Source: Candidatus Lindowbacteria bacterium RIFCSPLOWO2_12_FULL_62_27
GTDB lineage: Bacteria > Lindowbacteria > 2-12-FULL-62-27
DNA length: 64,000 nt
Assembly: GCA_001784175.1 (NCBI GenBank)
Contig: MFPR01000033.1
Span: 1 to 64,000, forward strand
Direction of reading: 5' to 3'
The notes beneath the pieces were generated by a model. That model was not told the DNA's origin. It searched no databases and saw only the letters and a program-made list of their open reading frames with translations. Position numbers and translations under genes: made by a program. Positions within the stretch are counted from its first letter, which is position 1. Every line of letters starts with the position of its first letter. Below are positions 1,779-13,722 of this stretch, in pieces.

Positions 1779-2148
1779 GTGGGCATACGATGTTCGGATT
1801 TATACCGGATCACGGCGACCATCCACCCGGAGAAAAGCCGCGCGATGATCGACGCCGCCGTCGCCCTCGGCGCGCCGCGCGTATTCATCGTCAAGGGCCG
1901 GGGCGTCATGCACGAAAAGAAAATCGGACCTCTGACTGTGCCGGGCCTCTCGCCCTCCTTTGATATCCTGAATTTGATCGTGCCCGAAGGAGCGCTGAAC
2001 CGACGAGCGGGAGATCACCTCGCGGACCATCGGCGAAAAACAGGTCAAACCGATGGTCGAAGCGATCACCGCGATGCCGGAGCTCGCCGGCACACCGGTC
2101 ATCCTCTTCGCCTGCCCCTCGCCGCAGGCGCTGACGTATATGAAATAG
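1779..2148 (+). pseudogene. PII-like (GlnB-fold) protein, frameshifted or internally deleted
   Basis: First frame YRITATIHPEKSRAMIDAAVALGAPRVFIVKGRG...FDILNLIV. After ~2000 a different frame reads EREITSRTIGEKQVKPMVEAI...ILFACPSPQALTYMK* (TAG 2146-2148). Total length 370 nt is not a multiple of 3. Confidence 0.55.
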
Positions 2149-2715: not shown

Positions 2716-4446
2716 ATGAATCTGTCGAACTTCAATAAGGCGGCGTATCCGATCCAGGCCCTTTTCAAATATATCTACCGCTGGTTCTTCGCCTGCCCGG
2801 ACAAGCTTTCCCACTCGAAGATCTCGACCTTTCTCTCCTGTTCGCTCAAATACCATTTCCAGTACGGCAAGAAATGGCCGACCCGCCTGACGGGGGCGCT
2901 CACGTACGGATCCGTCATCCACAAAGTCCTCGAACTCTTTCACGCCCGTTACGACGTCCCGCTGGCCACAGAGGAGGATATCCTCGATCTTCTGGAGGAG
3001 CGCTGGTCGTCGGACGGGTTCAAGACAGCGGAGGAGGAACAGGAATACAAAGCGCGCGGCCGACGGCTTCTTTCCAAATATCTGGCCGAGGCGAAGGCCC
3101 ATCCGCCCAATGTTTGGCGGACGGAGCTGTTTGTCGAGGCGACGATCGGCGGTGTCTCGGTGGTCGGCCGGATGGACCGGGTGGACCGGGAAGCGGACGG
3201 GAGCCTGACGATCGTCGATTACAAAACGGGCGACAAAATGCTGGATCCCGAGTCTCTTCAATCGGACCTTCAGGCCAATCTGTATTATCTGCTCGGCGAG
3301 AAAACCATCGGGCGAAAATTCAAAAAGTTTTTTTACTGGTATCTGGAAAAAGACCGAAAAGTTCCCGTCACGATCACGGACGCGGCCCGCAAGGAGACGG
3401 AGCAGGTCGTCCGGACCACGGCACACCGGATGCAGTATGACGATCCGAAACCGAAAAAGGGCGTGTTGTGCAATTGGTGCGATTATTACGAACGGTGTCC
3501 GGCATGGAAGAGCCGCCCCGAACGGCTCTACAAGATCGTCCGCGAATCAGAGGACCGGCTGGGATTGTCCTATTCGAAAATCAGCCAATTCCTGAACTGT
3601 CCCATGGTCTACAAGAAGGTTTATCTCGACAAAATTTCTCCGAAGCCCAAGGGATTTTTCGCCATCGGCCACACGGTGCATCAGACGATGGAGGAGTTTT
3701 ACATGTATGACGGCCCGCTGTCCGAACCGCCTCTCGCATGGCTCCTCAAGCTCTATCACGAACACTGGATCGGGAGGGGCTACGAGTCCAAAGACGCCGA
3801 GGAGCAGGTGAGGCGGGAGGGCGAGCAGTGGATGCGGAACTACCACGCCAAATACGTGAAGGGCAAATTCCGCCGGGGAACTTACAAGGTCGAAGAATAC
3901 TTCGAATTGCCGCTCGGCCGGCACGCGATCATCGGATACATGGACCGCCTGGACAAAAATGACGACGGCACCTTCTCGCTCGTTGACTATAAAACCGATC
4001 CGGTCATGCGGACGCAGGAGGATGTGAACAAGGACAAGCAGTTGTTTCTCTACGCGTGGGCCTGCAAAAAGCTGGGCATTCCGCTGCGGGACCAGACATT
4101 GATTTTCGTCAAATTCAACGAACACCTCACGACGACGCACACGGAAAAAGACATCGCCGACTTTGAAGCTGAGATGCTGAAGGTCGCGGACGAGATGGTC
4201 GAATCCGAGCGAATCGCGCGTGAGGCGTCGCCCGCGGAAATCGAAAAGCGGTTTGCTCCCAGGATCAACAAATACTGCGGCGGCTGTGACTACTTGCCGG
4301 TCTGCCCCAAACGCGAGGAAATTCTGACCCAACACAAGGACGAGATCATGCACGCGATTGACGAGACCAAATTGAGGGACCGGATTCCCGAAGACGCCGC
4401 CGCCGACGTCGAATCGGAACAGCCGGAACCCTCGACCATGCCATGA
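2716..4446 (+). CDS. Protein with two tandem PD-(D/E)XK (RecB/AddB/Cas4-like) Fe-S nuclease domains
   Basis: Repeat 1: LSHSKISTFLSC..GSVIH..GRMDRVD..VDYKT..QANLY..CNWCDYYERCP. Repeat 2: LSYSKISQFLNC..GHTVH..GYMDRLD..VDYKT..QLFLY..CGGCDYLPVCP. RBS GGAGG. Confidence 0.92.
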   Translation: MNLSNFNKAAYPIQALFKYIYRWFFACPDKLSHSKISTFLSCSLKYHFQYGKKWPTRLTGALTYGSVIHKVLELFHARYDVPLATEEDILDLLEERWSSDGFKTAEEEQEYKARGRRLLSKYLAEAKAHPPNVWRTELFVEATIGGVSVVGRMDRVDREADGSLTIVDYKTGDKMLDPESLQSDLQANLYYLLGEKTIGRKFKKFFYWYLEKDRKVPVTITDAARKETEQVVRTTAHRMQYDDPKPKKGVLCNWCDYYERCPAWKSRPERLYKIVRESEDRLGLSYSKISQFLNCPMVYKKVYLDKISPKPKGFFAIGHTVHQTMEEFYMYDGPLSEPPLAWLLKLYHEHWIGRGYESKDAEEQVRREGEQWMRNYHAKYVKGKFRRGTYKVEEYFELPLGRHAIIGYMDRLDKNDDGTFSLVDYKTDPVMRTQEDVNKDKQLFLYAWACKKLGIPLRDQTLIFVKFNEHLTTTHTEKDIADFEAEMLKVADEMVESERIAREASPAEIEKRFAPRINKYCGGCDYLPVCPKREEILTQHKDEIMHAIDETKLRDRIPEDAAADVESEQPEPSTMP

Positions 4447-4464
4447 CGAAAGCGGCCGCCTGAC

Positions 4465-4683
4465 ATGCAGACCGCCGGTCGAATGGTTCTGTTCGGCATG
4501 ATCGTCGCCATGCTCCTTGGCGCCACGGTCCTCTTTTGGAGGAACGGCTTCACGGTTGAAGGCATGTTTGAGAATCACTGGCGCAAGACTCTTCAAAGCA
4601 ACGCCGAGTATTATCCCGCGGTCGGCAAGGGAACCCTTCCGGCCGCCGAAGTCGATCCGTCCTGGTCGACCGAAGGGTACTGA
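4465..4683 (+). CDS. Small single-pass membrane protein
   Basis: 72 aa, one N-terminal TM helix, packed 18 nt after the nuclease gene and 2 nt before comEC. Confidence 0.65.
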   Translation: MQTAGRMVLFGMIVAMLLGATVLFWRNGFTVEGMFENHWRKTLQSNAEYYPAVGKGTLPAAEVDPSWSTEGY

Positions 4684-4685
4684 CC

Positions 4686-7580
4686 ATGTCCTTAACTCCG
4701 GGCCGGATGTTCGATTGGTTCCGATCGAAATCGGGCGCGAAGTTGCCCGCGCGGCGGCCGGAGGTCCTGCGGCCCAGCCTGAAAAAATCGCCCATCTGGA
4801 TCCCGCGGCATCTGTTGATCCTGTTTTGTTACGCCTATATTATCGGCATCGTCGCCGGGATGTACGTCTACCGGATTCCCCCGTCGTTTCTGATGTATGG
4901 ATACGGCGCGCTCGTCATCAGCTTGCTGGCCGCGATGATGATTGGATTCCTCAAACGCCAGCATGCCTGGACCGCCGGCGCCATCGCCCTCGCCGCCACC
5001 GCCCTCGGTCTGGTCAACTACTCTCGCGCCCTCGACACATCGGACCCGAGGCATCTGGTTCATTTCGCCGGCGAGGGCTTTGACGAGCGAGTCACGCTGA
5101 CGGGTGTGGTGACGTCCGACCCGGACATCCGGGAACGGTACACCAATCTGGTGGTGGAGCCGGTCACGGTCGAAACCGAAGAGGGTGAGACCGTCCGGCC
5201 AAGCGGTGGCGGCGTCATGGTGCGGCTCTATCCGGACAGCCTCGATTCTTATGGGGACTATGCCTACGGCGACAGCATTCAGGTCCGGGCGCCGCTGGTC
5301 ATTCCGCGTCGAGGCGCGAATCCCGGCGCGTTTGACTACCGGCAGTGGCTGATCGAGCGGCAGGGCTGTTACGCGACGATGCAGGTGCGTCGAAATTCGG
5401 AAATCCAAAGACTGGGCCGGAACCGCACACATTTCCTTGTCGATTTCTCTCTGCGGATGAAGGAAAAAATTCTCGAGTCGATCCGCCTGACGATGCCCTA
5501 CCCTGAATCCTCCTTCCTGGGTGGCGTGACCCTCGGCCTGAAGGGCGGTGTGACGCAGAAGACCCGGTTCGAATTCCAATCGACCGGCATCGCGCACGTT
5601 CTGGCGGTGTCCGGTCTTCATGTGGGATTCGTCGCCGTCCTGCTGCTCATGCTGGCCCATTTGTTCAATCTGCCGGAGAAATTTCATCCGGTGTTTATCG
5701 TTCTGGGGTTGATCGTTTTCTCGATCATCACCGGCGCATCCCCCGCCACCGTCCGCGCGGCCATCATGTTCAGCATGTTCATCTGCATCCGGTATTACAT
5801 GACGGGACTGGGGCTCGCGGCGTCGACGCTCCTCACCATTCCCGTCGCGGCCCTCGCGATCCTTCTGTCCAATCCCCTGCTCGTGATGGACGCCAGTTTT
5901 CTCCTGTCCTTCGGCGCGGTCCTCTCGCTGGGGCTCTTGACATGGCCCCTTCAGATGGTTTTCAACCGCCTCTTCGTCGGGTTTCGACTGGTGGCGGCGG
6001 GACTCACGGTTGTGTTCCTGACATGGATGGCCCACGCGCACTGGGGCATGTTCTTTGATCGCTCGACCGCGCCGCTGATTTTCGGGAGTCTGGCGATTTT
6101 ATGGGCCGCGGCTTTTTTGCTCCAGAAAAAATTCCCGACCGCCGTTCCCTACGGATTTACGTCCATCCATCCGTGGATCGGTTCCTTCATCGCCGCGCAG
6201 GTCGCCATCAATCTGGGCAACAGCCCGCTTTTCGCTCTCTACTTTTACCGCCTGTCGATCTCCGGATGGTACGCCAATTTCATCGCCATTCCGCTCTGCG
6301 GCATCATCGTCCAGCTGGGAATTCTCGCCGGCTTGTTTTATATGATTCCGGTTGTCGGTCCCTATCTGGCCGCGATGATCAATGGCGGCAACTTCCTCTT
6401 TTGCGCGTTTTTCCTGGGCAGCGCGACCTTTTTCGCAAATCATTTTCCGTACCCCTACGTGGGAACGCCGTCGACGGAATTCGCGGTTGTCTACTACGCC
6501 GTCCTTGCGCTGTTTGTCTGGCATCGGCCCATCTGGCATCGAATCAAAACCGTTTACACGTGGTGGCTCTACCGGAAGCAGGTTCCGGAAGTCCGCGGCA
6601 AACTTTACGCGACGCTGGCCGTGTCGGTTCTTCTGGTCAGCCTCCCGGTGTTCTACGTGATGGGCAACGCCTCCGGGCCGCGGCTTCGGATCGCCATTCT
6701 CGACGTCGGCCAGGGAAGCGTCACGATCATTCGGACGCCGTCGGAAAAGGGCATTCTCGTTGACGGCGCGCCGTATGACGGCTACCGGGACTTCAACGCC
6801 GGCCAGAACATCGTCGCCCCCGCTCTGTCGGATTACGGCATCAACGTCCTGGACCATGTGGTCCTGACGTCGTTCAAACCCGAGCACATGGGCGGCCTGC
6901 CGTTTCTCCTCCGGCAATTTCACGTCAAGGAGTTTGTCGACTGCCTGCCGCCCGAACTGGCCGACGCGAAGACGACGTGGGACACGTTTGCCGCGCGACT
7001 CGCGAAATCCCCTTACGCGCCGCTTCTGGAAAGCAAATTCACCGACGAAATTTTTGAATCCTATCGAAAGGTTCTTGAGGCGGTCGAGGAGAAGCGGGCA
7101 CGCAGGACCCATCCATCGCAAGGGCGCGTGATTCACGAAGAACAGACGCCGTACGGCATCCTGCGCGTTTCAACCGTGGCACTGCCTGACACGGGGCTTT
7201 CCATCCCGATGCGGACCGCGCTGGTCAAAATTGAGTGGGGTCCGACCTGGTCGGTTCTTCTGACCGGGGATATGACGGAAACGGAGATGGCTCTGGCCGC
7301 GAAGACCGACTCCGCCGCGCTCGACGCCGCCGTTCTCTTGTTGCCCTCTCACGGACAGGTTTTCGAGAAGTCGTTCCTCTCGGCCGTATCGCCCCGATAC
7401 GCGGTGGCTCAATCCAGGTTGCCCTTCCGGCGGCGGGCCGCCAAGCCGCATGGGACGGAAGAGGAACTGGTAAACTATTTTCAAAAGGAAGGGGGCACCT
7501 ATTTTCAGACCAACAAAAACGGCGCGATCCTGATCGAAAGCGACGGAAAACGGTTTTCCGTCAGGCCATATACGCCCTAG
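4686..7580 (+). CDS. comEC: ComEC/Rec2 DNA uptake channel (OB/DUF4131 + Competence + degenerate metallo-beta-lactamase domain)
   Basis: NPGAFDY, TGIAHVLAVSGLHVG, PATVRAAIM, FLLSF, LDVGQG, LLTGD and C-terminal TNKNGAI motifs. Confidence 0.95.
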   Translation: MSLTPGRMFDWFRSKSGAKLPARRPEVLRPSLKKSPIWIPRHLLILFCYAYIIGIVAGMYVYRIPPSFLMYGYGALVISLLAAMMIGFLKRQHAWTAGAIALAATALGLVNYSRALDTSDPRHLVHFAGEGFDERVTLTGVVTSDPDIRERYTNLVVEPVTVETEEGETVRPSGGGVMVRLYPDSLDSYGDYAYGDSIQVRAPLVIPRRGANPGAFDYRQWLIERQGCYATMQVRRNSEIQRLGRNRTHFLVDFSLRMKEKILESIRLTMPYPESSFLGGVTLGLKGGVTQKTRFEFQSTGIAHVLAVSGLHVGFVAVLLLMLAHLFNLPEKFHPVFIVLGLIVFSIITGASPATVRAAIMFSMFICIRYYMTGLGLAASTLLTIPVAALAILLSNPLLVMDASFLLSFGAVLSLGLLTWPLQMVFNRLFVGFRLVAAGLTVVFLTWMAHAHWGMFFDRSTAPLIFGSLAILWAAAFLLQKKFPTAVPYGFTSIHPWIGSFIAAQVAINLGNSPLFALYFYRLSISGWYANFIAIPLCGIIVQLGILAGLFYMIPVVGPYLAAMINGGNFLFCAFFLGSATFFANHFPYPYVGTPSTEFAVVYYAVLALFVWHRPIWHRIKTVYTWWLYRKQVPEVRGKLYATLAVSVLLVSLPVFYVMGNASGPRLRIAILDVGQGSVTIIRTPSEKGILVDGAPYDGYRDFNAGQNIVAPALSDYGINVLDHVVLTSFKPEHMGGLPFLLRQFHVKEFVDCLPPELADAKTTWDTFAARLAKSPYAPLLESKFTDEIFESYRKVLEAVEEKRARRTHPSQGRVIHEEQTPYGILRVSTVALPDTGLSIPMRTALVKIEWGPTWSVLLTGDMTETEMALAAKTDSAALDAAVLLLPSHGQVFEKSFLSAVSPRYAVAQSRLPFRRRAAKPHGTEEELVNYFQKEGGTYFQTNKNGAILIESDGKRFSVRPYTP

Positions 7581-7625: not shown

Positions 7626-8894
7626 ATGAGAATGACCCGGTGTCTGACCCTTTTGGCCGTTCTGTGTTTTCCGGCAGCGGCGGCCGCCGATGATTCCGGC
7701 GCGCGCGCACCCCTGCGCACGCTCAAAGAGGCCTACGTGAGCGCGCTTCAAAACAGCGAGCGAATCACGATCAGCGCGGAGGCCGTTCGAGAGGCCGAGG
7801 CCGTCTACCGGCAGACTCTGGGCGACGCGCTGCCTGAACTCACGTACCGTCGGACGGTGACGCGAAAGGACCGCACGGGATCGACGCCCGAACGGATGTT
7901 CCGTTTGAGCAAGACGGATTTGAGCGGCTACCGGGAGCTGGCGGAATTGCGCGCGGACACAGCCGAGGTCCGACGCCTCGTCCACGAACGACTCCGGGCC
8001 GAACAGCTCCTCCTCTTCGACGTCGCGGGCGCCTTCTACGGATACCTCCAATCCGCCGAAAACATCACCGCCACAAATCGACTCGTCGACCTGTCGCGTG
8101 AACGCCTCAGCGAGCTGCAAAAACGCGTGCGCGTCGGCCGGACACGCGAAGCCGATGCCGTCGGGCAGGAATATCAGATCGAATCTCTGCTGTCCCAGCT
8201 TGAGGAAAGCGAACGTCTCCTCGAGTCCCGCGGAAACCTCCTGTCCTTTCTCGCCGACGCGCCCGTTGCCCGGCCGGACGCAATCGACGCGGGAGTGTCG
8301 CGGGCCGGGCGGACACTGCCGCCGCTGGCGAGTTTCCTCGCGCGAATCGGCGCGCGGCCCGACGTCCGGGCCGCATCGGAAAACAGGGAGTCGGCCGGGG
8401 CCCTTCTGGACGCGGCACGCGCGGACCGCCTGCCCCAGCTCGACGCGACGGCGAACTACTACACCGACCGGCCCACATCGAACGCGGGTAATGATTGGGA
8501 CGTCGCACTGACCGTGGACGTTCCTGTGTTCGACTGGAAAAAACGACAGGGCGCCGTGGATGAGGCCGCCGCGGTTCTGAAACAGCGCGAACAGGAACTT
8601 CGCGCCGCGCGCCGTCTGGCGGAATTGGAAATTCGAAATGCCTGGCGCGACTATGTCTCGGCCCGAAAACAGCTGGATCTCAGGAAAAAATCGGTCGACC
8701 TCGCGCGGCGCGACTACGAACTGCAGGCCCGCGACGACCGGCAGGGACTGGTGACCAGCCTGGAAGTCATCGAATCGCTCAACCGCCTGAACGCCGCCGA
8801 GCTGGCGCAGAACAGCGCGCGCCTCCAGGAACGGCTCGCAGCGGTCAACCTGGAAGTCGCCGCCGGATCGCGCCCTGAGGACATTCTCAAATGA
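7626..8894 (+). CDS. TolC-family outer membrane efflux protein
   Basis: Signal peptide, two OEP-like repeats (RPDV..A, LPQL, VPVFDW), overlaps RND gene start. Confidence 0.9.
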   Translation: MRMTRCLTLLAVLCFPAAAAADDSGARAPLRTLKEAYVSALQNSERITISAEAVREAEAVYRQTLGDALPELTYRRTVTRKDRTGSTPERMFRLSKTDLSGYRELAELRADTAEVRRLVHERLRAEQLLLFDVAGAFYGYLQSAENITATNRLVDLSRERLSELQKRVRVGRTREADAVGQEYQIESLLSQLEESERLLESRGNLLSFLADAPVARPDAIDAGVSRAGRTLPPLASFLARIGARPDVRAASENRESAGALLDAARADRLPQLDATANYYTDRPTSNAGNDWDVALTVDVPVFDWKKRQGAVDEAAAVLKQREQELRAARRLAELEIRNAWRDYVSARKQLDLRKKSVDLARRDYELQARDDRQGLVTSLEVIESLNRLNAAELAQNSARLQERLAAVNLEVAAGSRPEDILK

Positions 8895-11800
8895 TTCTCT
8901 CGGACCTTTCGATCAAGAAACCCGTCTTCGCCTGGATGATCATGCTGTCCCTCCTCCTCTTCGGCGGCATCGCGTTTCACCGTCTCGGCGTTTCGCAGAA
9001 TCCCGACGTCGACTCGCCCGTCGTCAACGTCCGGCTGTCCTGGGAAGGCGCGGGCCCGGAGGTGATGGAGAGCGAAGTGGTCGATCCCGTCGAGGAGTCG
9101 ATGATGACGGTCGAGGGAATCAAGAAGGTCAGGTCGACCAGCCGGTTCGGTTCCGCCAACATCACGGCGGAATTCGAGTTGTCCAAAGACATCGACGTCG
9201 CGGTTCAAGAAGTTCAGACGAAACTCGCGCAGGCCCGGCGCAATCTCCCGGCCGAGATGGATCCGGCCGTCATCCAGAAGGTGAACCCCGAGGATGAGCC
9301 GATCATGTGGATCGGCGTCTCGGGAACGCGCCCGCAGAGGGAAATCGCCGCGTACGTGCGGGACCACATCATCGACCGGTTCCAGACGATTCCGGGCGCC
9401 GGGGAAGTCACGATGGGCGGCTACACGGATCCGAATCTTCGCGTCTGGCTCAATCTCGAAAAAATGAACGACCTCCAGATCACCGTGGATGACATCCTCT
9501 CGGCGATCCAGGCCCAGCACTCCGAGATGCCGGCCGGCGTGCTTCAGTCCGAGCGGGAGGAACAGAACGTCCGCGTGATGGGCGAGGCGGCGACGGCGGA
9601 GGAATTCCGGCGCATCACGATTCCGCAGAGAGTCGGGCAGGGAATCCTCTGGCGGACGATCCGGTTGGGCGACATCGCCGACATCGAGGAGGGCCTGGCC
9701 GATGTCCGGCGCATTTCGCGCGTCAACGGCGAACCGTCCATCGGGCTTGGCATCCGAAAACAGCGCGGGGCCAACGCGGTGGACGTTGCGCGCCGGGCCA
9801 AGGCCGAGATCGAGGAGATCCGCGCGGAACAACCGGAGGGAATCAAAATCGGCGTCAATTTCGACAGCACCCGTTTTATCGAGGACAACATCCGCGAACT
9901 GATGACCACCCTCATCATGGCCGTCCTCTTCACATCGGTCGTCTGCTGGCTGTTTCTCGGATCGTGGACGTCCACCTTGAACGTGATCCTCGCGATTCCG
10001 ACCGCGCTCGGCGGGACATTCATGGTCATCTACTTTCTGGGATTCACGCTCAACACCATCACCCTGATGGCGATTTCGCTGGTGGTCGGAATCGTGGTGG
10101 ACGACGCGATCGTCGTTCTGGAAAATATCGCGCGGCGGCGGGAGATGGGCGAATCCCGGATCCACGCGGCGGTCCACGGCGCGCGGGAAATCACCTTTTC
10201 GGTCATCGTCATCTCGAGCGCCGTCGCGGCGATTTTTCTGCCCGTGGCGTTCATGCGCGGTGTGGTCGGCAAGTTTTTCTACGAGTTCGGCGTCACCGTC
10301 ACCGTGGCCGTCGCGTTTTCGCTGCTCGAAGCCATCACCCTCGCGCCGATGCGGTGCAGCCAGTTTCTCCAAGTCGGCCATGCATCACGCGTCGGCAGGG
10401 TGACGGACCGGCTCATGCGGTCTCTCACGGGCGCCTATCGGACCGCGCTCGACGCGGCGCTCCGGCACCGCTGGAAGGTCCTCGCGGGCGCGACGGCCGT
10501 TTTCGCGCTCTCGCTCGGCATTGCCGGAAAACTCCGGCAGGAGATGCTTCCGCCGCAGGACACCGGAACGTTCATCGTCCGGTTTCAGACGCCGCCCGGC
10601 TCATCGCTCGCGTTCACCAATGAGGTTTTTCGAAAGATCGAGGATTTTTTCAGCCGGCGTCCGGAAGTGGTGAAATATTTCGGCAATGTCGGCGGATTTC
10701 AAGGCGGCGAGGTCAACAGCGGCAGGATTTTCGTCACGATGCAGCCGTTGAAGGAGCGGCCCCTCGCTCCCGGCAAGAACCGGCCGATCACCCAGCAGGA
10801 ATTTCAGACGATCGTCCGCAAGGGTCTCAAGGACATTCCGGGCCTTCACCGCGTGGCGCTTCAGGACCGCTCGCAGACCGTCGGCAATATCGGCGGCGGC
10901 CGGTCCTATCCCGTCGAAATCGCCGTGTACGGGCCCGACTGGGACAGCCTCGGCGCCTACTCGGAGCGGATTCGCGGCCGGCTCATGGAATCGGGCGCGG
11001 CGGTCGATGTCGACGTGAGCTACCAGGTCGGCGTGCCGGAAGTGAGGATCATTCCGGACCGGGAGGCGGCGGCGGCCCGGGGAGTGACGGTTGCGGCGAT
11101 CGCGCGAACGATCAACGCGACGGTGGGCGGGATCCGCGCCGGAAAATATACGAAAGGCGGCCGGAGATATGACATCCGCGTCAGCCTGACCGACGCGAAC
11201 CGGACCGGCGAAGCCGACATTTCGAAGCTCTGGGTGCGCAACGTCCGCGGCGAGATGGTCCGGCTGGCGGACGTCACCCGGATTCTGGCGAAGCCGACGC
11301 TTCTGTCGGTCCAGCGCGAGGACCGCGAGCGGTCGGTGACCGTTTTCGGCAACGTCACGCCGGGCAGATCCCAGTCCGAGGCGGTGTCGGCCGCCCTGCG
11401 GATCGCGAAGGAAATTCTGCCGGACGGTTATCACGCCACGCCCACCGGCAGCGCGGAGCAGATGCGCGAAACGTTTCTCGAACTCATCTTCGCCCTCGTC
11501 CTCGGCGTCGCCATCGCCTATATGATTCTCGGCGCGCAGTTCAACAGCTTCGTCCATCCCTTCACGATCCTGCTCGCACTGCCCTTCAGCCTCTCCGGCG
11601 CCCTGGCCGCGCTCTGGGCATGGGGACATTCCATCAACATGATGAGCATGATCGGAATTCTTCTTCTGATGGGCATCGTCAAGAAAAATGCGATCCTGCT
11701 GGTGGACTTCACAAACGCCCGGCGCGAGGCCGGCCTGCCCAAACGCGACGCGATTCTGGAGGCCTGCCCTCTGCGCCTTCGCCCGATCTTGATGACCTCC

Positions 11801-12037
11801 TTCGCGATCATCGCCGGCGCGCTTCCCAGCGCCATCGCGCTGGGCGCCGGAGCGGAACTTCGCGCCCCCATGGCCACCGTCGTCATCGGCGGCACACTCG
11901 TGTCGACCTTGATGACCCTCTTCGTCGTCCCCTGCGCCTACAGCCTCCTCGCGCGCCTCGAGTCCAGACGCAAGGACGCGCGTCTGGCCGAAGTCAACGA
12001 GGCTCTGGCCGCCCCGGACTCTCGTCAAGAATCATAA
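8891..12037 (+). CDS. RND efflux permease (AcrB/MdtBC family)
   Basis: 1048 aa; VGIVVDDAIVVLENI, GIVKKNAILLVDF, RLRPILMT. Confidence 0.97.
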   Translation: MILSDLSIKKPVFAWMIMLSLLLFGGIAFHRLGVSQNPDVDSPVVNVRLSWEGAGPEVMESEVVDPVEESMMTVEGIKKVRSTSRFGSANITAEFELSKDIDVAVQEVQTKLAQARRNLPAEMDPAVIQKVNPEDEPIMWIGVSGTRPQREIAAYVRDHIIDRFQTIPGAGEVTMGGYTDPNLRVWLNLEKMNDLQITVDDILSAIQAQHSEMPAGVLQSEREEQNVRVMGEAATAEEFRRITIPQRVGQGILWRTIRLGDIADIEEGLADVRRISRVNGEPSIGLGIRKQRGANAVDVARRAKAEIEEIRAEQPEGIKIGVNFDSTRFIEDNIRELMTTLIMAVLFTSVVCWLFLGSWTSTLNVILAIPTALGGTFMVIYFLGFTLNTITLMAISLVVGIVVDDAIVVLENIARRREMGESRIHAAVHGAREITFSVIVISSAVAAIFLPVAFMRGVVGKFFYEFGVTVTVAVAFSLLEAITLAPMRCSQFLQVGHASRVGRVTDRLMRSLTGAYRTALDAALRHRWKVLAGATAVFALSLGIAGKLRQEMLPPQDTGTFIVRFQTPPGSSLAFTNEVFRKIEDFFSRRPEVVKYFGNVGGFQGGEVNSGRIFVTMQPLKERPLAPGKNRPITQQEFQTIVRKGLKDIPGLHRVALQDRSQTVGNIGGGRSYPVEIAVYGPDWDSLGAYSERIRGRLMESGAAVDVDVSYQVGVPEVRIIPDREAAAARGVTVAAIARTINATVGGIRAGKYTKGGRRYDIRVSLTDANRTGEADISKLWVRNVRGEMVRLADVTRILAKPTLLSVQREDRERSVTVFGNVTPGRSQSEAVSAALRIAKEILPDGYHATPTGSAEQMRETFLELIFALVLGVAIAYMILGAQFNSFVHPFTILLALPFSLSGALAALWAWGHSINMMSMIGILLLMGIVKKNAILLVDFTNARREAGLPKRDAILEACPLRLRPILMTSFAIIAGALPSAIALGAGAELRAPMATVVIGGTLVSTLMTLFVVPCAYSLLARLESRRKDARLAEVNEALAAPDSRQES

Positions 12038-13722
12038 TGCACGGACTTCTGCAGGATCTTGGCATTACCATTATCATCGCCACCTTGGTCAATCTGTTAA
12101 CGCACCGGCTCAAACAGCCCAGCATTCTCGGATATTTGGCGGTCGGAATCATCATTGGGCCCAACATCGGACCCCAGTTGATTTCCGACGCGGCACACAT
12201 AGATATCATTTCTGAAATCGGATTGATCCTGCTGCTGTTCATCATCGGACTCGAAATGGATATCCCCAAACTGATGAAGAGCGGCAAGGAGCTGGTCGTT
12301 GCGGGAGTGGGTCAGTTTCTGCTCAGCGTGGTTTACGGCGTGGTCTTCTTCAGTCTCATGGGGTACGCGCTCCAAAGCAGAAAACTCGACGCGCTCTATC
12401 TCGCAATTTTTTGCGGACTGAGCAGCACGGCCATTGTGGTCAAACTTCTCTACGACAAATTCGAGCTGGACACGCTGTCGGGGCGGATCACTTTGGGCGT
12501 ACTTATTTTTCAGGATATTTGGGCCATCCTCATTATTTCGTTTCAACCACACTTTCATCACCCCCAAGCGTCTATTTTCGCCCTGACCATCCTGAAAACC
12601 GCCGCGCTTCTGGCAACGGGATTCTTCTTCGGTAAATACATCCTGTCCCGTCTGTACGCGGCGATCTGCAAGGAGCCGGAGCTGGTCGTGATCGTGTCGA
12701 TCGGCTGGTGCGCCTTGATGGCGGTTCTGGCGGGATTTCTGGGGCTTTCCAAGGAGATGGGCGCGCTGGTGGCCGGTCTTTCGGTCTCGACGTTTCCGTA
12801 CAGCATCCATGTCACTGCCAAAATCGGGCCGCTCAGGGACTTTTTCCTGACGCTGTTTTTTATTTCGCTGGGCATGAGCATTCCGATGCTCGAGGTCAGT
12901 ATGCTGAAAGCGGCGGGGGTGCTGGTCGTTTTTGTGTACCTTTCCCGGTTCCTGTCGGTCTATCCGCTTCTTGCGCTCTGCGGCTCCGGCCGCCGGACCG
13001 CTTTTTTATCGAGCTTGAATTTGAGCCAGATCAGCGAATTTTCTCTGGTGATCGCCACGCTGGCCATCAGCCACAAGCACATCGACCCGGAGACGATGTC
13101 GACCGTTCTCTACGCCATGGCCCTGACATCGATCCTCACGTCCTATCAGATCAAATACAGTCAGAATCTGTTCCTTCTGTTCGACCGGACGATGAATCGT
13201 CTCGGGGTTCGGGGCCGCGAGGCGAAACTCGAAGAGGAAGTGACGAAGGGCGAGGCGTATCCGATTGTGGTTCTGGGCTACCACCGGGGAGCGCGCGCGT
13301 TTACGGACGCGATCGCCCGGGAGCAGCCGGAACTTCTGAAAAAAATATTGGTGGTCGACTTTAATCTGGAAATCCTGAAGGAGCTTCAGGGACAGGGCAT
13401 TCACGGCATGTTCGGCGACGTCAGCAGCCTCGACACGCTCATGCACGCGCACATCGACAAGGCCGGGCTGATTCTATCGACCATCCCGGATCTTCTGCTG
13501 AAGGGAACCGATAACGTCAAGCTTGTCCGCATGTGCCGGAGAGTCGCGCCGGAGGCCGCCATCGTGGCGACGGCCGACTTCAAGGACCAGATTCCGGCGC
13601 TGAAAGAGGCGGGAGCGACGCAGGTCCTCCTGCCCTATTCACTGGCCGGCGAGCAACTGGCCGGCTTTGTCATGGATCGCCTGCCGGCCCTGGATATCGA
13701 ATCTACTCCCACACCGCCCTGA
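12037..13722 (+). CDS. Cation:proton antiporter (CPA2/Kef-type) with C-terminal KTN/RCK domain
   Basis: Start MHGLLQDLG overlaps RND stop (TAATG); [35 protein letters not shown]. Confidence 0.93.

Follow-up and report, generated by a model that had tools for sequence, protein, structure and literature searches.

The window analysed here is a 64,000-nt stretch of DNA from Candidatus Lindowbacteria bacterium RIFCSPLOWO2_12_FULL_62_27 (contig MFPR01000033.1, positions 1 to 64,000 of the forward strand). The locus under study consists of three genes only, encoding a tandem nuclease, a 72-aa membrane protein and a long ComEC; the last two are designated here as the small protein and ComEC-L, names coined in this analysis. 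The following features were identified:

2716..4446, + strand: tandem PD-(D/E)XK Fe-S-type nuclease, 576 aa, with an ACE1/AdnA-like fold and no helicase
2725..2790, + strand: N-terminal amphipathic helix of the nuclease (aa 4-25), a helix in the AlphaFold2 model
2800..3510, + strand: first nuclease domain (aa 29-265), intact in the window protein; its counterparts in homologues are frequently degenerate and keep the four cysteines
3559..4317, + strand: second nuclease domain (aa 282-534), catalytic and invariant, by which the family is defined
4465..4683, + strand: 72-aa single-pass membrane protein (by hydropathy) with a conserved N..SN..YY-type motif after its helix, a constant companion of ComEC-L
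4686..7580, + strand: ComEC-L, 964 aa, with an OB fold (DUF4131), a Competence channel with an insertion of ~60 aa and a degenerate beta-lactamase-like domain
6870..6887, + strand: degenerate metal-binding motif of ComEC-L (aa 729-734), which lines up with HxDxDH in ComEC domains of solved structure

The nuclease ATG is closely preceded by a GGAGG motif, and the gaps between the genes, 18 nt from the nuclease to the small protein and 2 nt from there to comEC-L, are as originally predicted. Genes for a metallo-beta-lactamase (MBL) and for ComEA are located at other loci of the genome. A promoter and terminator scan returned signal at chance level, and among sequencing runs no RNA holder was listed. 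Starting 45 nt after comEC-L, a TolC-type outer membrane protein and an AcrB-family transporter are encoded at window positions 7626-12037 (+); efflux-type genes similar to this pair sit upstream in loci L032 and L058. A relation of these genes to the module is improbable. On the other side, positions 1782-2145 (+) carry a reading frame, presumably P-II-like, that appears split over two frames near 2020-2090, which suggests a frameshifted gene or an assembly error; a Pfam search of this frame gave a weak Smr match only. A short run of N, representing a scaffold gap or masked bases, is present at 559-572, upstream of the locus.

The nuclease was shown to comprise two PDDEXK_1 stretches (E 5.9e-67) and no other domain. 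Domain 1 carries E137, D154, D168-Y-K170, Q186xxxY190 and C42 together with C252/C255/C261, and domain 2 carries E393, D410, D424-Y-K426, Q442xxxY446 and C295 together with C521/C524/C530. Both domains, which are 26% identical to each other, thus possess the E...D...D/E-x-K core, QxxxY motif and 1+3 cysteines of the RecB/AddB/Cas4-like Fe-S group. These positions bear out the original prediction of one polypeptide with two complete PD-(D/E)XK domains, each with D..DYK, QxxxY and a 1+3 Cys set, and family profile searches of the protein likewise agreed with it in detecting no helicase. The AlphaFold2 model (mean pLDDT 86) placed ACE1 as the best structural match of each domain, followed by the nuclease domains of AdnA and AddB; by analogy with the ACE1 and AdnA folds, the protein would be expected to bind an Fe-S cluster and to have nuclease activity. 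Hydropathy revealed no transmembrane segment in the nuclease (maximum 19-residue hydropathy 0.95). Its N-terminal helix has a hydrophobic moment of 1.95, is present in most channel-adjacent homologues and may possibly serve as a membrane anchor.

Comparison with known nucleases pointed to relatedness at the level of the domain and to differences at the level of the system. ACE1, an Argonaute-associated Cas4-family nuclease (PDB 9iab and 9iac; PMC12094033), matches each domain with a TM score of 0.70 by target and resembles the window protein in its D-DxK core, four-Cys set and freedom from a helicase. However, ACE1 is a single domain accompanied by a pAgo, whereas the window family has two to five tandem domains, 14-18% identity to ACE1 and ComEC-L as a partner; no Argonaute gene, the mark of APACE1 systems, adjoins the nuclease gene, whose neighbours are the small protein, ComEC-L and the efflux operon. 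AdnAB and AddAB (PDB 6ppr and 4ceh) share the Fe-S-type nuclease module and the use of two nuclease domains per machine; in contrast, the window nuclease has no helicase or motor domain, carries both nucleases on one chain and scores far below AddB cut-offs. Nor is a superfamily 1 helicase of the AddAB, AdnAB or RecBCD kind fused or adjacent to it: no ATPase-competent UvrD/AddA partner was found beside the nuclease, and the UvrD-like neighbours found in nuclease loci are devoid of Walker motifs. CRISPR Cas4 and solo-Cas4 (PMC5704561) have the same motif set and gave weak model matches, the score against the Cas4 equivalog TIGR00372 (58.5 bits, two domains summed) lying below the cut-off of 65 bits. 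As predicted, cas genes are absent from the vicinity, with no cas1 on the contig and the cas1 matches of the genome confined to contigs C6 and C4. PADLOC 2.0 reported partial Cas4/DruK/Aga domain matches and no full-length system match in a fitting gene set.

A GTDB scan yielded 51 nuclease loci, of which the two weak ones (L105 and L106) were set aside. The family is small: about 35 multi-domain representatives top the 50%-cluster search, after which scores fall to single-domain proteins. Among the record titles are Elusimicrobiota, Riflebacteria, Auribacterota genera, CSSED10-310 and Sumerlaeota. When cultured carriers were sought, every named match proved to be a MAG-type or unclassified record. 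Architectures with two, three or five domains, or with two domains and a long insert in the first, were observed. Of 96 last domains, 75 remained after dereplication at 90%, 73 of them with a complete start; the last domain, which groups as one clade, was intact in all 73 of these homologues. Upstream domains retained an intact catalytic core in 28 of 84 cases and the four cysteines in 84 of 84. The conserved unit is therefore one cutter behind variable Fe-S-type repeats. Accordingly, the proposed 'two-headed' nuclease describes the window protein, in which both domains look intact, but not its homologues, which have two to five domains with only the last always intact.

Several variants were encountered alongside. 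Riflebacteria-type proteins of ~1300 aa consist of five tandem PD-(D/E)XK Fe-S-type domains (L078:8306-12250 and L087:7580-11560). A subtype with a ~470-aa insert in the first domain, without a Pfam match, is encoded at L042:8053-11472 (G000:C28), L036, L037 and L149, and is always paired with a ComEC-L subtype of altered channel motif (H304 to W, S309 to A). In one close relative, a 980-aa protein without a Pfam match is encoded directly upstream of the nuclease (L058:6944-9886). An unusual nuclease-signalling fusion, in which a PD-(D/E)XK domain is joined to GGDEF, was found at L038:6444-8195 (also with GAF) and L158:7937-9730.

The 964-aa ComEC matched DUF4131, Competence and, weakly, Lactamase_B. 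ComEC was reported as one copy per proteome in all but one strain (PMC6299819), and a single match was obtained in most genomes of a 41-genome sample, with several in the window genome and in four other nuclease carriers. The window genome encodes four Competence-domain proteins: three are long, and the fourth, of ~700 aa, is encoded next to comEA. In trees of 111 sequences (53 long and 58 ordinary; root not inferred, many ordinary ones long-branched), all 53 long ComECs were placed on one branch separate from the 58 ordinary ones (FastTree support 1.0, SH-aLRT 100). With four copies in the genome and a position in a separate clade, the window ComEC departs from the single-copy, orthologous pattern of the competence ComEC. 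The predicted operon with comEC thus stands as regards the linkage, but the partner is, on sequence grounds, a separate, long paralogue of ComEC whose nuclease domain is degenerate, and not the normal competence ComEC.

ComEC-L retains the architecture of ComEC/Rec2 from Neomoorella/Moorella (PDB 30bt, 9ic4, 9iew and 9vc6; PMC13539106 and PMC12455585), the order of OB fold, Competence channel and beta-lactamase-like fold being unchanged. The channel residues are conserved, G310, H312, R357, S408, N531 and P536 being invariant in 53 of 53 ComEC-L sequences, consistent with the predicted import of ssDNA. Compared with ComEC/Rec2, ComEC-L forms a separate long clade present as an extra copy, carries ~60 additional residues in its membrane domain, and is accompanied by the small membrane protein, a stand-alone MBL and the multi-domain nuclease. 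The beta-lactamase-like domain's HxH/DxDH motif, described as catalytic (PMC12455585), has been lost in all 53 ComEC-L sequences, that of the window included, although the modelled C-terminal domain retains the ComEC beta-lactamase-like fold. An active domain is typical of ComEC/Rec2 and not universal: the motif was found in only 14 of the 58 ordinary ComECs, some rows being truncated, so its loss is not unique to ComEC-L. A staphylococcal-nuclease (SNase) domain was seen inserted in the OB-fold region of some ComEC-L proteins (L141:8596-11865; P0212-P0221).

The small protein produced no match at cut-off in family profile searches and no family in the ESM Atlas (best feature score 0.88), and flanking charge assigned it no clear orientation (28 of 46 cases). 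It was detected at 45 of the 53 ComEC-L loci and at two more by a separate look, while four of the remaining six loci start at a contig edge. It had been proposed as a tether for the nuclease; since it accompanies ComEC-L also in cases where the nuclease is encoded at another site or missing, it is more likely an accessory of the channel.

The association between nuclease and ComEC-L was evaluated in several ways. Among the 49 GTDB nuclease loci, 16 have an adjoining ComEC-L and six more have other genes of the cluster, the rest being unlinked or too short; the two genes adjoin each other in different lineages and in several arrangements. Of 50 nuclease-bearing genomes, 44 contain a long or split-pattern ComEC at some position. 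Twenty such regions were added, of which 19 were unlinked to the nuclease or extra paralogues in these genomes (one duplicate was dropped from the tree), and they fell within the ComEC-L clade. In a 401-genome sample chosen by neither gene (nuclease threshold 260 bits or more), the nuclease was present in 16 genomes, ComEC-L in 24 and both in 15; as kin are non-independent, the Fisher p of 3e-20 overstates this co-occurrence, and several of these genomes fed the profiles, with two ComEC-L candidates scored per genome. Within one phylum of 20 genomes, the nuclease was detected in 17 and ComEC-L in 15, all 15 within the 17.

Furthermore, tree distances of 39 nuclease/ComEC-L pairs were correlated (r = 0.71, reached by 0 of 2000 permutations), the ComEC-L tree reproduces 16 of the 22 strong splits of the nuclease tree, and two paralogous nuclease/ComEC-L pairs of the window genome fall in matching separate clades. 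Shared descent alone would account for part of this mirroring. Exceptions occur on both sides: 9 of the 24 ComEC-L genomes lack a full-scoring nuclease (one with a truncated candidate), the nuclease occurs without a detectable ComEC-L in G441 (97% complete), G054 and G075, as well as in G074, G079, G081 and G082, and it is unlinked to ComEC-L in Riflebacteria and Auribacterota records. The predicted comEC linkage therefore withstood examination by lineages and gene orders, co-occurrence and mirrored trees. As judged from sequence, the nuclease is a conserved genetic partner of ComEC-L and belongs to a conserved gene set around a second version of ComEC in many uncultured bacterial lineages.

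The wider neighbourhood was surveyed across the 53 ComEC-L loci, some of which had been chosen by way of the nuclease. A stand-alone membrane-anchored MBL was encoded at 36 of these loci and the nuclease at 21; of the 42 MBL rows listed, 32 show a motif of the HxH/DxDH type. ComEA-like HhH genes, DHH/RecJ-like genes, a secretin with an HhH tail and the SNase insert in ComEC-L are also recurrent. Same-strand pdp/deoB/pnp/deoC/cdd or ndk genes lie within 7 kb of 20 of 53 ComEC-L loci, compared with 0 of 22 ordinary comEC loci; the 20, of which 11 are deo-type and 9 ndk, belong to a small number of related groups and are thus not independent, and ndk is a salvage rather than a catabolism gene. 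The enzymes concerned are nucleoside phosphorylases, phosphopentomutase, deoxyribose-phosphate aldolase, cytidine deaminase and ndk. A run of deoC-pdp-ComEC-L-comEA-(MBL)-nuclease-DHH-(cdd) is found in L095, L103 and L156, each minus one or two labels. No nucleoside-catabolism gene was found next to the window locus or those of its closest relatives, the deo genes of the window genome being on contig C43.

A third ComEC-L of the window genome (L048, G000:C26) is encoded in the order ndk, small protein, ComEC-L, comEA, MBL, comEA, without a nuclease and with a secretin-like gene ~21 kb away. UvrD-like proteins without Walker A/B motifs are encoded in ComEC-L or ComEA/MBL clusters (L075:7204-8928, L090:1499-3463 and L153:285-2255) and are possibly ATPase-dead DNA-binding partners. 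Two sets of helicase-partner candidates were discarded: the 781-aa ORF of L159 and matching ones in L153 and L090 are PheT, not UvrD, and the intact UvrDs of L140 and L147 are both in genomes without the nuclease. A paralogous module (L033:336-4320 and 11376-13312) is bordered by an RT-Cas1 fusion and a CRISPR-like repeat stretch on one side and by adenylate cyclase and Csm6-like genes on the other.

The reading preferred here, to which we assign a probability of roughly one half, is that ComEC-L provides a second route of DNA uptake, in which the putative cytoplasmic nuclease degrades imported ssDNA for nutrients and not for recombination. ComEA-like HhH proteins would bind DNA outside the inner membrane, and the membrane-anchored MBL nuclease, encoded elsewhere in the window genome, would take over the removal of one strand from the degenerate ComEC domain. 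The remaining strand would cross ComEC-L, with the small protein as accessory subunit, in keeping with the reported delivery of one strand to the cytoplasm by ComEC (PMC13539106). The nuclease would then thread this strand, holding it with the upstream Fe-S domains and cutting it with the last one, as in ACE1, an end-requiring ssDNA endonuclease whose domain type is described as threading and cutting free-ended ssDNA (PMC12094033). DHH/RecJ-type enzymes and deo genes would complete the breakdown, and transformation would be handled separately by ordinary ComEC, DprA and YraN. Nutrient degradation is favoured because a helicase-free chain of domains with an amphipathic helix suits a substrate that arrives end-first and already single-stranded. 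Counting against this reading are the lack of nucleoside-catabolism genes at the window locus, the kinship of the 20 loci that have nucleoside or ndk genes, the exceptions to co-occurrence, and the ordinary comEA-comEC pairs described below. Nucleotide auxotrophy is not supported as a general rule behind such uptake, as purM is present in 15 of 24 ComEC-L carriers and pyrB is over cut-off in 15 of 24, both counted among carriers alone; the window genome has both genes.

The main rival holds that ComEC-L is a specialised transformation channel, with the nuclease trimming incoming ssDNA, cutting it to size or resolving intermediates of recombination. YraN and CoiA, which also act on DNA after uptake, are PD-(D/E)XK nucleases required for transformation (PMC13663708), an ordinary comEA-comEC pair occurs within the same cluster at six loci, as would suit a general competence island, and UvrD-like genes are found in some clusters; moreover, in pneumococcus EndA likely stands in for an inactive domain of ComEC, and transformation still takes place (PMC12455585). 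YraN and CoiA belong to families (PF02021 and PF06054) different from that of the window nuclease and are paired with ComM or RadA. However, YraN (encoded separately) and DprA are already present in five of five genomes tested, and the UvrD-like neighbours lack Walker motifs. In addition, 38 recurring neighbour proteins were scanned without a match to a DprA or RecA model, whereas several of them are deo enzymes. On balance, a transformation role is considered rather unlikely.

Membrane-bound surveillance or defence, in which foreign ssDNA of conjugative or phage origin is destroyed at its port of entry, is improbable: ACE1, the nearest structural relative, belongs to an Argonaute immune system (PMC12094033) and the homologous locus L033 abuts a CRISPR-like repeat stretch with RT-Cas1 and Csm6-like genes, but the recurring neighbours are mostly housekeeping and nucleotide genes, the PADLOC matches are weak and at domain level, viral contigs gave one partial match, and the last domain averages 44% identity across lineages with largely congruent trees. 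There is equally little to commend a lineage-specific repair or housekeeping ssDNA nuclease that travels with ComEC-L through shared lineages, which would accommodate the many genomes where the two are unlinked, the at least six that keep the nuclease without a detected ComEC-L and the kinship that inflates the Fisher test, but not their adjacency in different gene orders in different lineages or their joint duplication in two genomes; other long PDDEXK-tailed proteins of the window genome, one fused to UvrD, fit repair roles.

All parts of the module are known folds. What is offered here is a new candidate for an accessory protein of ComEC, a nuclease built from one to four variable Fe-S-type repeats followed by one intact domain, and a genome that breaks the reported single-copy rule for ComEC (PMC6299819). 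No description of the ComEC-L clade, its small partner or the repeat nuclease was found in the literature listings searched; the main text of PMC5704561 mentions no ComEC, competence or tandem forms, and its supplements could list such loci.

Within the nutrient reading, a bolder and more tentative proposal, put at clearly below even odds, is that many deep-branching uncultured bacteria possess a second, ancient ComEC machine for eating DNA, in which the cytoplasmic Fe-S chain acts as an ATP-free ratchet drawing DNA inward. Strand removal would have been given to a separate membrane nuclease, and two to five iron-sulfur rings would grip and destroy the incoming strand, preventing recombination. 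If so, DNA for food and DNA for genes would follow physically separate pathways in one cell. It has long been debated whether bacteria import DNA as food or as a source of genes, and tests are difficult since a single ComEC serves both purposes. Where one genome has two ComEC clades, of which one is linked to a dedicated ssDNA nuclease and, in certain lineages, to the catabolism of deoxynucleosides, these purposes would become separable.
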